Below, one piece after another: positions 24,815 through 29,531 of a stretch of DNA of 47,247 bases (the first letter of the stretch is position 1; the number at the start of each line of letters is the position of its first letter). The stretch covers positions 1 through 47,247 of the IMG/VR virus record IMGVR_UViG_3300003322_000883. One strand, written 5' to 3'. Origin of the DNA: a virus. The notes under the pieces were generated by a model, which searched no databases, was not told where the DNA came from, and saw only the letters and a program-made list of their open reading frames with translations. The position numbers were made by a program, and so were the translations under genes.

Positions 24815-25992
24815 GCGCACGAGACCTCCCCCAGGTGCAGCTGCTGCAAGGTGACTGCCGTCAGGTGCTTGCGGCCCTGGCAGAGGGAAGCGTCGACGCC
24901 ATCGTCACCGACCCGCCGTACGAACTTGGGTTCATGGGCAAGGGCTGGGACAAATCGGGCGTCGCGAACGACCCTGAGACGTGGTGCCAGGCACTGCGCG
25001 TGCTCAAGCCCGGCGGCCACCTGCTCGCGTTCAGCGGCACGCGCACCTACCACCGCATGGTGTGCGCGATCGAGGACGCCGGGTTCGAGGTCCGCGATCA
25101 AATCGGCTGGGTCTACGGGAGTGGCTTTCCGAAGTCGCTCGACGTGAGCAAGGTGATCGACAAAGCCCTCGGCGCGGAGCGTGAGCAGGTAGCGCCGAAG
25201 AGCGTGATCGGTCACCAGCGGAACATCGGCAATCGTCGCCCCTACATGGACGACCCGAACCACACCACAGACAGCGACGAGCCGGCGAGCGAGCAGGCGG
25301 CGCAGTGGCAAGGCTGGGGCACCGCGCTCAAACCCGCATGGGAGCCCATCGTCGTCGCGCGCAAGCCGCTGATCGGCACCGTGGCGGCCAACGTGCTGGC
25401 CCACGGCACGGGCGCGCTGAACATCGACGGGTGCCGGGTGCCGGCCGAGAAGGCGACCGGCTGGGGCGGTGGTGGTAGTGCGCTCTACGAAGGCGGACTG
25501 TCACGTGAGGGTGGCGAAGCGCGACTACAAGACGCCGGCCGCTGGCCCGCCAACATCATTCACGATGGTAGCGACGAGGTGCTGGCGGCTTTCCCGCAGG
25601 CGCCGGGCCAACTGGCCAAGGCGAGCACCAGCGACACGCAGCGCGGCGGCCAGAACGTCTACGGCGTGATGGCCAGGGGGTCGAACGGTGCCGAGCCGCG
25701 CGGCGACACCGGCAGCGCCGCCCGCTTCTTCTACTGCGCCAAGGCCAGCAAGAAAGACCGCGGCGAGGGCAACAACCACCCCACGGTGAAGCCCACCGAG
25801 CTCATGCGCTACCTGTGCCGCCTGGTCACGCCGCCCGGCGGCCTGATCCTCGACCCGTTCATGGGCTCGGGCAGCACCGGCCGCGCCGCTGTGCTCGAAG
25901 GCTTCCGGGTCATCGGCTGCGAGCAGTCGCCCGAGTACCTGGCGCTTGCGGAGGCACGCATCAACTCGGCCCTCTTCGGCGACCTCGCATGA
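24811..25992 (+). CDS. DNA methyltransferase (N6A/N4C, beta-class, DPPY)
   Basis: GTG 24811 overlaps the Cro-like stop. 'AIVTDPPY' (motif IV) precedes 'HPTVKP' and 'ILDPFMGSGSTG' (motif I). Confidence 0.85.
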   Translation: MSARDLPQVQLLQGDCRQVLAALAEGSVDAIVTDPPYELGFMGKGWDKSGVANDPETWCQALRVLKPGGHLLAFSGTRTYHRMVCAIEDAGFEVRDQIGWVYGSGFPKSLDVSKVIDKALGAEREQVAPKSVIGHQRNIGNRRPYMDDPNHTTDSDEPASEQAAQWQGWGTALKPAWEPIVVARKPLIGTVAANVLAHGTGALNIDGCRVPAEKATGWGGGGSALYEGGLSREGGEARLQDAGRWPANIIHDGSDEVLAAFPQAPGQLAKASTSDTQRGGQNVYGVMARGSNGAEPRGDTGSAARFFYCAKASKKDRGEGNNHPTVKPTELMRYLCRLVTPPGGLILDPFMGSGSTGRAAVLEGFRVIGCEQSPEYLALAEARINSALFGDLA

Positions 25993-27974
25993 CAGCAGTG
26001 ACCGACATCACCCCCATCGCCCATATCACGTGCCCCAGCGCCCTGCGCGACCTGCCAGGGTGGGTCATCTGGCGCTTCGAGCCGAACGGGGACAAGAAAC
26101 CCCGAAAGGTGCCGTTCTACACGAACGGTGGCCGGCGCCACGGTGACCACGGCTCAAGGGAAGACCGGGCCCAGCTCACCACCTTCGACGCAGCGCGCGC
26201 CGCGGCCGCCCGGCGCAAGTTCGACGGCATCGGCCTGGCCCTGCTGCCCGAGTTCAACCTGGTGGCTCTCGACTTCGACGACTGCATCGCCCAGGGCCGC
26301 ATCCACCCCGAGGTCCTCGAGCTCCTCTCCGACACCTACGCCGAGCGGTCTCCGTCGGGCAACGGCATCCGCGCCTTCTTCCAGGGGCAGCTCGGCAACC
26401 GCAAGTCGCACAAGGCGAAGGGGTTCGAGTACGGCGTCGAAACCTTCAGCACCAACGGCTTCGTCACCTTCACCGGCCAGGTGCTCGACATCGTGGAGCT
26501 CATGGGCAACATCGACACGGTGGCGCCCATCAACACGGAGGTCACGGACCTCATGCGCCGGCGCTTCAAGCGCGAGCTGGAGGCCCAGGCGCAGGGCGTG
26601 CAGAACCTGGACGTGCTCGGCCTCACGAGCCACGACATCGGTCGCTGCCTCACGGCCTTGCCGCCCGACCTCGACTACGACACGTGGCTCATGGTCGGCA
26701 TGGCCATCCACCACGAGACCAGTGGCACGGGCTTCGACATGTGGGACACCTGGAGCCAGGCCTCGTCCAAGTACAGCACGCGTGAGTACAACCTCGAGCG
26801 CTGGAACAGCTTCGGCAAGTCCGCCTCAGGCCCGACCGTCACCGCACGGTCCCTGGTGCACCTGGCCAACGAACACGGCGCGGGCTTCCAGACCAACGGC
26901 CCGGCCAGTGCCGAGGAGTTCGACGAGGTGGCCCAGGAGGTCGCTCAGGCGCAGGAGGGCGCACCGGCCAAGCCCAACCGCTTCACGCCGCTCAGCCTGC
27001 TCGACTTCACCAGCCAGCCAGCGCCCGAGTGGATCATCAAGGGCGTGCTGCCGAAGGCGGCGCTGGTGGTGCTCTACGGCGAGTCGGGCAGCGGCAAGTC
27101 CTTCGTGGCGTTGGACATGGCCATGGCCATCGCCCGGGGCATCGCGTGGCGCGATCGTCGCGTGTGCCAGGGTAGGGTGGTCTACATTGCCGCCGAGGGC
27201 GCTGGGGGCTTTCGCAACCGCTGCGTGGCCTACCTCAACCAGCACTGCCCCGACGGGTTCGACATCCCGCTTGAGATCATCCCCGACGCGCCGAACCTCT
27301 TGATGAAGGACGAGGCGCTGCAGGTCGCCCGCGGCATCGGCAAGGCCGACGTGGTGGTGGTCGACACCTTCGCCCAGGTGACCCCCGGCGGCAACGAGAA
27401 CGCGGGCGAGGACGTCGGCAAGGCGCTGGCCCACTGCAAGGGAATCCACCGTGCCACGGGCGCTGTGGTGCTGCTGGTGCACCACTCAGGCAAGGATGCC
27501 AGCAAGGGCGCGCGGGGCTGGTCAGGCCTGCGTGCAGCGGCCGATGCCGAGCTCGAGGTGTCCAAGAGCCCAGGCGGGCGGATGCTGCGCACCACCAAGC
27601 AGAAGGATGGAGCGGACGACCTCGCCTGGGGCTTCGGCCTGGACGAGGTGAGCATCGGCATGGACAGCGACGGCGAGGTCATGACCAGCATGGTGGTGGT
27701 CGAGAAGGAGCTGCCCACGGCCAGGGTGCTGAAGCCGATGGGGGCGGTTGAAACGCTGGTCAACGCCGTGATCCAGGAGATGGCCAAGGCGCAGACCTCG
27801 GGCATCGAGGTTGCGGCCATCGTCACCGAGGCGGTCAAGAAGCTGGACCCTCCCGAGGACGGTAAGCGAGACACCCGGAAGCAACGAGTGCGTCGGGCCA
27901 TCGAGACGCTTTGCAGTCCCTCTGACGACACGCCGTATTGGCTGCACGACGACGGGACCATCGAGATCATTTGA
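25989..27974 (+). CDS. Primase-polymerase (Prim-Pol) fused to PriCT and RecA/DnaB-like helicase domains
   Basis: ATGA overlap with the methyltransferase gene. Motifs: 'LVALDFDDC', 'SPSGNGIRAFF', 'YDTWLMVGMAIHHET...WDTWSQASSKY...RWNSF', Walker A 'GESGSGKS', Walker B 'VVVVDTF'. Confidence 0.85.
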   Translation: MTAVTDITPIAHITCPSALRDLPGWVIWRFEPNGDKKPRKVPFYTNGGRRHGDHGSREDRAQLTTFDAARAAAARRKFDGIGLALLPEFNLVALDFDDCIAQGRIHPEVLELLSDTYAERSPSGNGIRAFFQGQLGNRKSHKAKGFEYGVETFSTNGFVTFTGQVLDIVELMGNIDTVAPINTEVTDLMRRRFKRELEAQAQGVQNLDVLGLTSHDIGRCLTALPPDLDYDTWLMVGMAIHHETSGTGFDMWDTWSQASSKYSTREYNLERWNSFGKSASGPTVTARSLVHLANEHGAGFQTNGPASAEEFDEVAQEVAQAQEGAPAKPNRFTPLSLLDFTSQPAPEWIIKGVLPKAALVVLYGESGSGKSFVALDMAMAIARGIAWRDRRVCQGRVVYIAAEGAGGFRNRCVAYLNQHCPDGFDIPLEIIPDAPNLLMKDEALQVARGIGKADVVVVDTFAQVTPGGNENAGEDVGKALAHCKGIHRATGAVVLLVHHSGKDASKGARGWSGLRAAADAELEVSKSPGGRMLRTTKQKDGADDLAWGFGLDEVSIGMDSDGEVMTSMVVVEKELPTARVLKPMGAVETLVNAVIQEMAKAQTSGIEVAAIVTEAVKKLDPPEDGKRDTRKQRVRRAIETLCSPSDDTPYWLHDDGTIEII

Positions 27975-27985
27975 AGGATGAAGGC

Positions 27986-28564
27986 ATGGAACGCATAACC
28001 GTAGAAACGCACCGGCCCAGTCGTCAGCGCCTGGCCGGCGTGTATGGGCTCGTTGACCCCAATGAGCCGGAGCGCGTGCGCTACGTTGGGTCGTCGCAGC
28101 ATCTGGTGAAACGTCTGTACGACCACGCTTCGGGCTACGTCCCAAGGGCGCTGGACGGCCCGAAGCGCGCGTGGCTGGCGGAGCTGAAGCGTGCCGGGCG
28201 CCGGCCGGAGATGGTCGTGCTGCAGCGCTTGGCTAGCGGAAAGGCCACCCCGGAAACTCACGCCGCGGAGCGGGAGTGGATCAGGAAGCTCAACGCGATC
28301 GGGCAGGCTGATTTGAATGCGGTGCTTCGATCCGAACGCTATGAAGTGCTTTTGTTGCGTGAGCAAGTAAAAAACTGCATGCAAGAAATTGCGCGCTTAG
28401 AAGCTGAACTGGCTGCAACGCGCAACGACTGTGCAACGTTGCATCAAAAGTTGCGTTGCGCAGCTCCTCAACCTGCAACGCAACGCAACGGGGGTATAGA
28501 ACCCGTTGCGCGTGTTGCAGGGGAGCGGGGGTCATCGGGCGTCAATCTGCAAGATTTCGCATGA
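27986..28564 (+). CDS. GIY-YIG nuclease (homing-endonuclease-like)
   Basis: ATG 27986 follows AAGGATGAAGG. Motif: 'GVYGLVDPNEPERVRYVGSSQHLVKRLYDH'. GC3 is markedly lower than in the backbone. Whether the C-terminal 50 aa are really coding is uncertain, because they overlap the repeat array. Confidence 0.65.
   Translation: MERITVETHRPSRQRLAGVYGLVDPNEPERVRYVGSSQHLVKRLYDHASGYVPRALDGPKRAWLAELKRAGRRPEMVVLQRLASGKATPETHAAEREWIRKLNAIGQADLNAVLRSERYEVLLLREQVKNCMQEIARLEAELAATRNDCATLHQKLRCAAPQPATQRNGGIEPVARVAGERGSSGVNLQDFA
28414..28520. repeat. Dense GCAACG/CGTTGC direct and inverted repeat array with three nested hairpins
   Basis: GCAACG at 28415, 28422, 28433, 28475, 28480 and 28485. CGTTGC/GTTGC at 28437, 28450-28460, 28504 and 28514. 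Palindrome TGCAACGTTGCA at 28432-28443. Hairpins: GTTGCGTTGCGCAG/CTGCAACGCAACGCAAC and CAACGGG/CCCGTTG. Confidence 0.8.
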
Positions 28565-28577
28565 AAGGGCCTTCGGC

Positions 28578-28913
28578 ATGGTGAGCATGAACCAACGCAA
28601 GCGCCTGGTCGCCGTCAACGCGAAGGGCTACCGCCTGGGCGAAGACCACCACCGCGCCAAGCTGACCAACCACGACATCGACCTGATCCTGGACCTGATG
28701 GAGGCACGGGACCTGCTGCTGGTCGAGTACCAGAAGGTGGGCCTGGGCAAGCACGCGATCCAGATGGCCCTGAGCAAGGCCCAGCTGAGCGAGCGCTGGA
28801 TCGCCGCCAAGTTCGAGATCAGTCGTCGCACGGTGCGCGACATCTACAGCGGCAAGATTCGCGGCCAGGCCGCCGACGACTGGCGGGCGGATAAGCGCCG
28901 ACAGCCCCTTTAG
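28578..28913 (+). CDS. Small HTH DNA-binding protein (same 'KLT..D...I' + HTH architecture as the C-terminus of the 15822..16340 HNH); candidate late regulator
   Basis: ATG 28578. Motifs: 'GEDHHRAKLTNHDIDLILDL' and 'LSERWIAAKFEISRRTVRDIYSGK'. It is the last early-right gene, directly before terS. Confidence 0.55.
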   Translation: MVSMNQRKRLVAVNAKGYRLGEDHHRAKLTNHDIDLILDLMEARDLLLVEYQKVGLGKHAIQMALSKAQLSERWIAAKFEISRRTVRDIYSGKIRGQAADDWRADKRRQPL

Positions 28914-28916
28914 CAT
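28885..28916 (+). promoter_or_regulatory. Late-promoter-like element 2 (GGGCGGATAAG-N15-TAGCAT)
   Basis: The 11-mer lies at 28885-28895 and TAGCAT at 28911-28916, which is 7 nt before the terS ATG at 28923. Confidence 0.5.
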
Positions 28917-28922
28917 TTGGTC

Positions 28923-29531
28923 ATGGCGAACCATCACTTCCCCTGGCACGAGGCTTTCCTGGCGGCGCTGCGCAGCATGCCGGTGGTGCAGCACGCCTGC
29001 GACGCCGTGGGCATCCAACGCAGCACCGCCTACCGGGCGCGCGAGGCCGACGAGGCGTTCGCCCAGGCCTGGGATGACGCCATGGAGGCGGGCATCGACC
29101 GTGCCGAGCAGGAAGCCCTTCGCCGTGGCATGGTGGGCTTCGAGGAGCCTGTGGTGTACCAGGGCCAGCTCACGCCTGTGTGGAAGCGCGACGATGAGGG
29201 CAACGTGGTGATGCGCAAACGCGAGCGCACGGTGCACGACCCGGTGAAGGGCGAGCAGACGTTCACCGAGCAGGTGCCTGTGCAGCAGACCGATGAGCAG
29301 GGCCGACCGGTGTGGCTCACCGTGCGCAAGCACAGCGACGCGCTGCTGGCGCTGGTCCTCAAGGCCCGGCGCAAGGCCTACAGCACCGAGCGCACCGAGC
29401 ACGTCAGCCCCGACGGCAGCATGAGCCCGCTGGCCAACGAGACCGACCGCAGCGCTCGAGCTGCGCAGCTGTTGGCTGCAGCGCGTGAGCGCCGCGAGGC
29501 CCAGGGCGACGACTTCTCCGACTTGGCATGA
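28923..29531 (+). CDS. terS: Terminase small subunit
   Basis: N-terminal HTH 'VVQHACDAVGIQRSTAYRAREADEAF' and 'SDALLALVLKARR'. ATGA overlap with terL. Confidence 0.7.
   Translation: MANHHFPWHEAFLAALRSMPVVQHACDAVGIQRSTAYRAREADEAFAQAWDDAMEAGIDRAEQEALRRGMVGFEEPVVYQGQLTPVWKRDDEGNVVMRKRERTVHDPVKGEQTFTEQVPVQQTDEQGRPVWLTVRKHSDALLALVLKARRKAYSTERTEHVSPDGSMSPLANETDRSARAAQLLAAARERREAQGDDFSDLA

Follow-up and report, generated by a model that had tools for sequence, protein, structure and literature searches.

The viral record IMGVR_UViG_3300003322_000883, analysed here over its whole length of 47,247 bp (the window), carries a dense array of short direct and inverted repeats downstream of a gene encoding a primase-helicase. 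We propose that the region 28376-28561, which contains this array, is probably the replication origin of a phage related to Bordetella phage BPP-1. Such an origin would be of the iteron type, similar to the Rep/ori system of Staphylococcus aureus pathogenicity islands (SaPI) or the alpha/ori system of P4, with the addition of a stem-loop resembling that of pRN1. The evidence is comparative: the repeats are clustered and conserved, all of them change in concert from one phage to another, the repeated word corresponds to the C-terminal tail of the primase-helicase, and the hairpin built from part of the array shows covariation. An iteron origin for the primase-polymerase (Prim-Pol)/helicase was the first of three explanations offered in a preliminary description of the window. 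It is now supported by the co-variation of the repeat word with helix 3 of the predicted C-terminal domain of the enzyme, and by the fact that in many relatives the array follows the primase stop codon directly.

The Repeat Array in the Window

The hexamer GCAACG is present in exact form six times on the + strand (28415, 28422, 28433, 28475, 28480 and 28485) and three times on the - strand (28437-42, 28454-59 and 28504-09), with 46 copies elsewhere in the other 47 kb. The true repeat unit is the pentamer, found as GCAAC six times and as GTTGC five times (28438, 28450, 28455, 28505 and 28514) within 28415-28518. These eleven pentamers in 110 nucleotides (nt) compare with an expectation of 0.29 (Poisson P about 3e-14); the next-best 110-nt segment of the genome holds four, and the maximum reached in 200 first-order Markov genomes was five. 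The clustering is far above chance. The G+C content of 28300-28500 is 0.46-0.56, versus about 0.66 genome-wide.

The pentamers are distributed over two modules (Table 1), the first a run of direct iterons abutting a run of inverted ones and the second a long hairpin. In the minimum-energy fold of the 131-nt region, computed as single-stranded DNA or as RNA, two adjacent hairpins are formed (28412-28461 and 28463-28526), with energies of -40.1 kcal/mol as DNA (z -5.6) and -66.1 kcal/mol as RNA (z -5.1); 0 of 200 shuffles were as stable.

Most of what the preliminary description had read from these letters is borne out. Its count of at least six direct GCAACG copies agrees with the six on the + strand, while its count of at least four inverted copies holds for the pentamer core only. 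The 12-bp palindrome at 28432-28443 (TGCAACGTTGCA) is there, the second hairpin it had drawn (28486-28508) is present as 28484-92/28502-10, and the pairing of the distal repeat with 28473-85 is present as 28472-79/28514-21. The mutually exclusive hairpin fared less well: the pairing 28450-60/28479-89 exists, but it lies outside the minimum-energy and centroid folds, and it is expected from repetition alone, since any inverted copy can pair with any direct copy. The setting had also been given correctly, with the array 440 nt from the primase stop codon, close to the start of a small helix-turn-helix (HTH) gene (58 nt as measured) and in the low-GC tail of an open reading frame (ORF) of GIY-YIG type.

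Conservation of the Array among Related Phages

Related viral contigs, referred to here by L numbers, were gathered by searches with the primase and with a TerS alignment. A DNA similarity search of isolate phages with 27900-28950 gave no match, and neither did single-protein searches of viral contigs with the GIY-YIG protein and with the HTH protein. About 40 of the related contigs share this two-module layout at the same place, with the primase-helicase gene on one side and the HTH/TerS/TerL genes on the other. In module 1, three direct copies of the repeat (R) adjoin three inverted ones (R′); the spacers of this module are non-complementary, and it is therefore better described as a symmetric site array than as a conserved hairpin. 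Module 2 has the order G(A/C)AG, 5′ arm of the outer stem, A-rich bulge, R-R-R, variable apical stem, R′-nnn-R′ and 3′ arm of the outer stem. Its loop is of the kind CTATAGG, CTAAGG or CTAGAAG, its inverted copies number two, or three in some relatives, and GGGGG usually stands after the 3′ arm. In at least ten relatives only 60-80 nt separate the end of the primase ORF from a downstream reference point in module 2, set at 38 nt before the last direct iteron, so that module 1 begins almost at the primase stop codon.

Seven word types were found, namely GCAAC (in most phages), GCACC, GCAAT, CGAAC, CCTTC, CCTAC and CCCTT. All copies in one phage share one word, and the copies switch together between phages.

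Correspondence between the Repeat Word and the Primase-Helicase Tail

The word follows the C-terminal end of the primase-helicase. AlphaFold2 modelling of the last 130 residues of this protein (mean predicted local distance difference test score (pLDDT) 81; blocks from residue 51 on, 82-93) gives a topology of three helices followed by a beta wing. The best compact matches of the model in Foldseek are winged helices (the histone H1x globular domain, the MORF winged helix and MukE), all with E of at least 0.07 and none significant, for which reason the fold call is a prediction; a PDB sequence search with the C-terminal domain gave no significant match. The residues that co-vary with the word are located in helix 3 of this predicted winged helix.

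In 28 loci the last 45 residues of the primase-helicase sort perfectly by word, with seven helix-3 types for the seven words. GCAAC phages have the tail DGKRDTR(K/R)xR(A/V)xRAL, GCACC phages ...RKQHARRAL, GCAAT phages ...RARKAL (4/4), CCTTC phages ...D.KGN(Y/F)KSNARRAL, CCTAC phages ...DKKGNCKTLARRAL, CCCTT phages ...DPKGNARGAARTAL and CGAAC phages ...GDDSRRSRVKRAL; the CCTTC, CCTAC and CCCTT phages have a replaced loop (KGNxK..). One helix-3 position is Arg in all 16 GCAAC loci and His in all nine GCACC loci; six of these nine were retrieved by a pattern scan followed by a covariance-model screen. A pattern scan for TGCAATGCAATGCAA yielded no additional independent GCAAT locus. On a tree of the C-terminal 235 residues with helix 3 masked, GCACC needs six changes, at least three of which fall on branches with good support, and a single origin of GCACC is seen in 0% of bootstrap trees; independent pairs agree in 3/3 cases on supported branches and in 6/6 on the best tree. 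On a tree of the helicase core the word needs 11-14 changes, the minimum being 6, which is about what shuffled labels give (11 versus a shuffled mean of 11.7). The word thus fits the tail but not the helicase core, which indicates that tail and array travel as a module separate from both flanks. The co-variation is indirect evidence that initiator and iterons are matched in specificity.

Two other DNA-binding candidates encoded next to the array were considered as readers of the repeats and rejected. On one hand, the recognition helix of the HTH protein (VSKSCVAHIATGRRRGQ) is identical across GCAAC, GCAAT and CCTTC phages, with two conservative differences in the CGAAC phage L023, so that the same helix goes with different words. 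On the other hand, the N-terminal HTH of TerS (e.g., GIERSTAYRAR) is common to GCAAC, GCACC and CCTAC phages.

The latter result bears on the idea that the array is a pac or cos packaging site for the downstream terminase. Known sites of this kind do use short repeated words, as in the repeated hexamers of phage P1 pac and the R sites of lambda cosB, and the TerS and TerL genes are less than 400 nt away. Yet TerS does not vary with the word, which makes a packaging site unlikely; moreover, the array travels with the primase tail and not with the HTH/TerS module, and phages of the same HTH/TerS type that have another replication protein (L059 and L021) also have another type of array. We give this explanation very little credence.

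Several points weigh against assigning the region as an origin. The winged-helix assignment comes from a model that found no significant Foldseek or PDB counterpart. Only three independent pairs stand on strongly supported branches, a number at which the sign test gives p 0.25 and significance is unreachable, and co-inheritance of neighbouring DNA could lie behind part of the protein-DNA association. The candidate readers compared were the proteins encoded within the fetched loci. The centre of the array is only moderately A+T-rich, with an A-rich hairpin bulge and no long AT tract, unlike Caulobacter phage SR18 or L021. The cumulative GC skew peaks near 29-31 kb, which is not diagnostic in phage. 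Finally, the + strand bias of the hairpin described below fits a role in RNA equally well.

Two groups of contigs depart from the general pattern. L004/L048 (1220-1345) have a degenerate, mixed GCACC/GCAAC array beside a divergent upstream gene, together with a primase tail of the Arg (GCAAC) type, and this array may be a recombinant or decaying origin. In L126 (- strand, array at 2215-2299), L089 (1343-1425), L133 and L137 a different replication protein is found, with the C-terminus ...WHIVQAEWVAQLRMVKSAPNAPERT, and its ORF runs into a GCACCT-type array with the same module-2 hairpin design; the origin design may therefore serve an unrelated initiator tail.

The Module-2 Hairpin

All 27 module-2 sequences examined fold individually into the same hairpin, with energies of -28 to -46 kcal/mol per ~82 nt. 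In a set of 12 GCAAC phages, the native combination of 5′ and 3′ halves averaged -39.3 kcal/mol, versus -29.1 kcal/mol for chimeras between these phages, and the native partner half ranked first in 9/12. Covariation was tested with a named structure on a gapless 11-sequence MAFFT alignment that had not been fitted to that structure. In this unfitted alignment paired cells amount to 86.4%, compared with 71.0% in shuffles and at most 45% in slid controls; 15/24 pairs are altered on both sides (8.0 expected), and the covariation score is 0.411 versus 0.144, a value matched in 0/500 shuffles. The strong covariation is located in the non-repeat stems. When the alignment is fitted to the covariance model, 23/24 pairs show compensatory change. 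The model itself gives a single match in the window (28455-28536, 68 bits, E 6e-18) and likewise a single one in each related contig. When a plain MAFFT alignment of the 27 sequences was given to RNAalifold, the 3′ arm was misaligned and a meaningless 6-pair stem resulted, and this approach was replaced; likewise, automatic finding of palindrome centres confused modules 1 and 2, and loci were anchored by hand on the apical stem-loop. In the GCAAC phage L014 (721-802) the third module-2 iteron is GCACC and its partner GGTGC, a compensatory double change that keeps the pairing.

The + strand folds better than its complement in 21/27 loci, and G.T exceeds A.C by 45 to 12, or 24 to 12 if one conserved wobble is subtracted. 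This bias suggests that pairing is selected in a single-stranded + strand molecule, which may be melted DNA or a sense transcript. The second possibility is the core of the strongest competing explanation, in which the primary role of the array would be played at the RNA level: the module-2 hairpin of an early operon transcript would serve as a pause site, a U-less terminator, or an element for processing or stabilisation, and would set the time at which the HTH gene is expressed. As RNA the hairpin has very high stability (-45 kcal/mol over 81 nt, in keeping with the z of the whole region), its non-repeat stems co-vary, the sense strand is the better folder (with G.U taking the place of G.T in the above count), and it stands 52 nt upstream of the HTH start. 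This explanation does not account for module 1, whose spacers do not pair, nor for the concerted change of 11 words with helix 3 of the primase-helicase, and the HTH protein stays unchanged across different words.

A scan of 27500-29500 for intrinsic terminators found no terminator-like site, the hairpin being followed by GGGGG and by no U-run, and a sigma-70 promoter scan found no promoter. Rfam 15 contained no matching family and returned only spurious miRNA-hairpin matches, with 14-21 bits against gathering scores of 40-100. The alternative pairing mentioned above exists, but it is missing from the minimum-energy fold and would be expected from repetition. An attenuator leader for the HTH gene, the second explanation in the preliminary description, is disfavoured by the absence of a U-tract terminator and of an Rfam match and by an HTH protein that does not co-vary with the repeats. 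Taken as the primary function, an RNA element is unlikely; as a second function of the hairpin an RNA-level role is possible, given the + strand bias.

The Array and the GIY-YIG ORF

In the window the GIY-YIG ORF covers the DNA of the array region from about 28376 onward, and the peptide it encodes there looks conserved. Of 27 homologues found for the GIY-YIG protein, the 16 best were aligned, and these seem to share a conserved tail, 'ATLH..LRC....ATQRNGG'. These two facts favour the view that the array serves a mobile GIY-YIG gene in recognition, homing or regulation, or encodes a functional peptide tail of its product. The DNA behind the tail reads otherwise: it consists of invariant GCAACGTTGC / GTTGCGTTGC / GCAACGCAACGCAACGG in which third-codon positions are also kept, and the motif 'ATQRNGG' in the 16 aligned homologues is GCAACGCAACGCAACGGGGG. 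The peptide 'conservation' coincides with the invariant third-codon positions of the iterons. In addition, the C-terminal ends of the ORF vary among homologues, stopping at differing points within or past the array.

The same array is intergenic in relatives without a GIY-YIG gene (L002, L003, L004, L016-L018, L029, L039 and others), and covariance-model scores reveal no decay of the array in such phages. The array is therefore not part of the GIY-YIG gene, and the ORF reads through it. This finding disposes of the third explanation in the preliminary description, an element tied to the mobile gene, which we now regard as the least credible of all. That description had also considered that relatives might keep the protein sequence and lose the repeats; the opposite is seen, as the nucleotide array is kept whether or not it is coding. 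To judge from these alignments, the array is conserved as DNA and not as protein, and the 'conserved' GIY-YIG tail is putative origin DNA read through.

The GIY-YIG gene would have been inserted later, in the interval from the primase stop codon to the proposed origin, its ORF continuing through origin DNA, and this insertion would explain the distance of 440 nt between primase and array in the window. Among relatives this distance goes from 60 to about 1760 nt. The gap between primase stop and array appears as a hot spot of insertion (window 27975-28375, L002 3137-3400, L003 5986-7270, and L041): the genes it holds are unrelated and differ between phages, with the GIY-YIG ORF present in the window and also in L006 and L007, several small ORFs in each of L003 and L041, and in L002 an ORF whose product, judged by eye, resembles a LuxR-type HTH regulator.

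A Possible Mode of Action of the Proposed Origin

For the replication origin proposed here we infer the following order of events. Subunits of the primase-helicase would dock on the iterons via the winged helix, and about six sites per orientation would fit two head-to-head rings. The protein would need no separate loader for its assembly and would open the low-GC centre by melting, after which the module-2 palindrome could fold on the + strand. The folded hairpin might then stabilise the open complex, or offer single-stranded loops for loading of the helicase or for priming by the Prim-Pol domain.

A bolder version of this model, which we put forward tentatively and consider somewhat doubtful, makes iterons and strand-specific hairpin one device, a hybrid origin. 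The winged helix would read the same pentamers that form the + strand DNA stems, the hairpin extruded on melting would be the signal for Prim-Pol/helicase loading or priming, and specificity would be re-set by single helix-3 residues (Arg for GCAAC, His for GCACC and Lys for GCAAT). If true, it would amount to a simple natural code for mutually orthogonal replicons.

Relation to Known Replication Systems

An iteron-type origin read by the winged helix of its own initiator is a kind that is already known. The Rep proteins of SaPI are initiator-helicases that load themselves, with a primase fused to the protein in SaPI5, and their C-terminal winged helix reads penta- or hexanucleotide iterons with element-specific specificity (PMC9371898). 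The SaPI ori contains 6-12 iterons immediately downstream of rep, divided equally between the two sides of a centre, with the two halves facing in opposite directions (PMC9371898). The window resembles this arrangement in having eleven short repeats in a cluster, in both orientations, downstream of the proposed initiator gene and with a phage-specific word. It differs in its ATPase, which is AAA_25 (RecA/RepA-like) where SaPI Rep has an MCM-like AAA+ fold, and in its centre, a co-varying, + strand-biased hairpin with two inverted iteron sets in place of a simple AT-rich tract. No sequence similarity was detected between SaPI Rep/ori and the system of the window.

In P4 alpha a single polypeptide has primase and helicase parts together with an origin-binding domain, a C-terminal winged helix, and this winged helix reads short repeats that are direct and inverted (PMC4234260). 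A primase-helicase with a predicted C-terminal winged helix and short repeats in both orientations are likewise found here. The differences are that P4 has a Toprim-type primase, a superfamily 3 (SF3) helicase, type I iterons that are octamers and a second site, crr, and that the hairpin is conserved here, while to our knowledge no conserved hairpin has been described for P4.

The counterpart of the hairpin is found in pRN1, where the origin of the Prim-Pol/helicase/winged-helix protein ORF904 is a 100-nt stem-loop downstream of the gene and replication needs the integrity of the stem (PMC4234260). As in pRN1, a long stem-loop lies downstream of a Prim-Pol/helicase gene, and here it is conserved as structure; unlike the window, pRN1 reportedly has no iterons, and its helicase is of the SF3 type. 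A stem-loop origin 3′ of the replication gene of BIP-1/BPP-1 had been predicted from a single-sequence fold (PMC4234260). That prediction came without comparative or specificity evidence, and the BPP-1 array at ~26593-26733 may be another stem-loop. This BPP-1 array (L008 3990-4130, between bbp27 and bbp28) occupies the corresponding genomic place but has a word of its own, and shows TTTGCCTCG twice, the palindrome TTTCTCATacgtgtacATGAGAAA, and CGAGGCAAA twice. Recognition iterons are also combined with hairpins in RSF1010 oriV, whose ssiA and ssiB hairpins act as single-stranded primase signals (PMC4234260). Its functions are distributed over RepC, RepA and RepB′ and its hairpins are separate from the iterons, whereas here the hairpin is built from them.

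A likeness of design, with no homology, exists to the core origin of SV40 and other polyomaviruses. There, four GAGGC pentamers in inverted arrangement, adjoining an easily melted tract, receive double hexamers of T-antigen. In both cases inverted pentanucleotide words would serve an origin-binding domain fused to a ring helicase; SV40, however, is a virus of eukaryotes; its helicase is of the SF3 type and its pentamers number only four.

What appears new is the family-wide definition of the proposed origin, the joining of iterons to a hairpin that is made from them, co-varies and shows strand bias, and a rule close to one residue for one base. In temperate podophages of the BPP-1-like (Rauchvirus-like) group, and in many uncultured phages related to them, a probable origin can thereby be placed where there was before only a guess from a single-sequence stem-loop, and this origin type would join iterons in the style of SaPI and P4 with a structured stem-loop in the style of pRN1. 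The correspondence of one helix-3 residue with one pentamer base, seen over several independent switches, is a protein-DNA rule that can be tested. For annotation, the 'conserved' C-terminal tail of the GIY-YIG protein family, which is probably origin DNA read as protein, calls for caution, and the gap between primase stop and origin is of interest as a hot spot for gene insertion.

Genomic Setting and Other Observations

The viral record is a complete, circular-type assembly with terminal overlap, and its TerL is 67% identical to that of BPP-1. The gene order (Cro-like, DNA methylase, primase-helicase, small HTH, TerS, TerL and T7-type portal) is the same in BPP-1 and related contigs. The features in and around the array are listed in Table 1.

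Table 1. Features of the window in and around the proposed replication origin.
Feature	Position	Strand	Basis or remark
Primase-helicase gene, proposed initiator	25983-27974	+	Prim-Pol-type N-terminus; Pfam PriCT_2 5.9e-20, AAA_25 ATPase 6.8e-37; PHROG matches to DNA primase/polymerase families
Predicted C-terminal winged-helix domain of primase-helicase	27744-27971	+	AlphaFold2 model
Helix 3 RKQRVRRAIETL of predicted winged helix	27876-27911	+	Co-varies with repeat word
Arg codon in helix 3, His in GCACC phages	27885-27887	+	Tail comparison
GIY-YIG-like ORF between primase gene and array	27986-28564	+	Weak GIY-YIG match, residues 18-103
Upstream flanking dyad TGCA TGCAAGAAATTGCG	28376-28393		Read from sequence; comparable motifs in relatives
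Module 1	28412-28461		Direct iterons 28415-19, 28422-26, 28433-37, then abutting inverted iterons 28438-42, 28450-54, 28455-59
Module 2, long hairpin of ~64 nt	28463-28526	+	Folds, covariation, covariance model
Module 2, outer stem	28463-67/28522-26		A-rich 5′ bulge 28468-71
Module 2, iterons	28475-79, 28480-84, 28485-89		Pair with inverted iterons 28505-09, 28514-18
Module 2, apical stem	28490-92/28502-04		Loop GGTATAGAA
G-run GGGGG after hairpin, in most relatives too	28527-28531	+	Alignments
Downstream flanking dyad TGCAAGATTTCGCA, just 5′ of HTH ribosome-binding region	28548-28561		Read from sequence; relatives
Small HTH gene, BPP-1 bbp27 position; array neighbour, not repeat reader	28578-28913	+	Helix comparison

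The flanking dyads belong to a word-independent motif, roughly (GAAC)GTGCA-N5-7-TTGC and often followed by GCGGATT, that brackets the array in most contigs. It is found on both sides of the array in L017, L018, L029, L032, L034, L058 and L061, and also in CCTTC and CCTAC phages, with two downstream copies in some contigs. Possible roles for this dyad are those of an operator, a part of a promoter or a site for a host factor. Further downstream, at 28885-28916 of the window, a GGGCGGATAAGCG box stands upstream of TerS at the 3′ end of the HTH gene; L006, which has the HTH type of the window, has this box upstream of TerS too, and L007, with another HTH type, differs there.

Phages with other replication proteins (SR18, L021 and L059) have repeats around an AT-rich tract at the same genomic place. 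In SR18 (L009 2700-2970) GTAACCAC repeats, and in L021 (~3030-3200) GGGTACA repeats, flank a strongly AT- or purine-rich tract. A repeat of another sort was seen in L003 (2620-3000), upstream of the primase gene, where an 18-nt unit, GACCTGGGCGTTGCCGTA, is repeated in tandem about 20 times with CAGG/CTGG variants; the copies probably code for a repeated hexapeptide on the - strand rather than forming a set of iterons.

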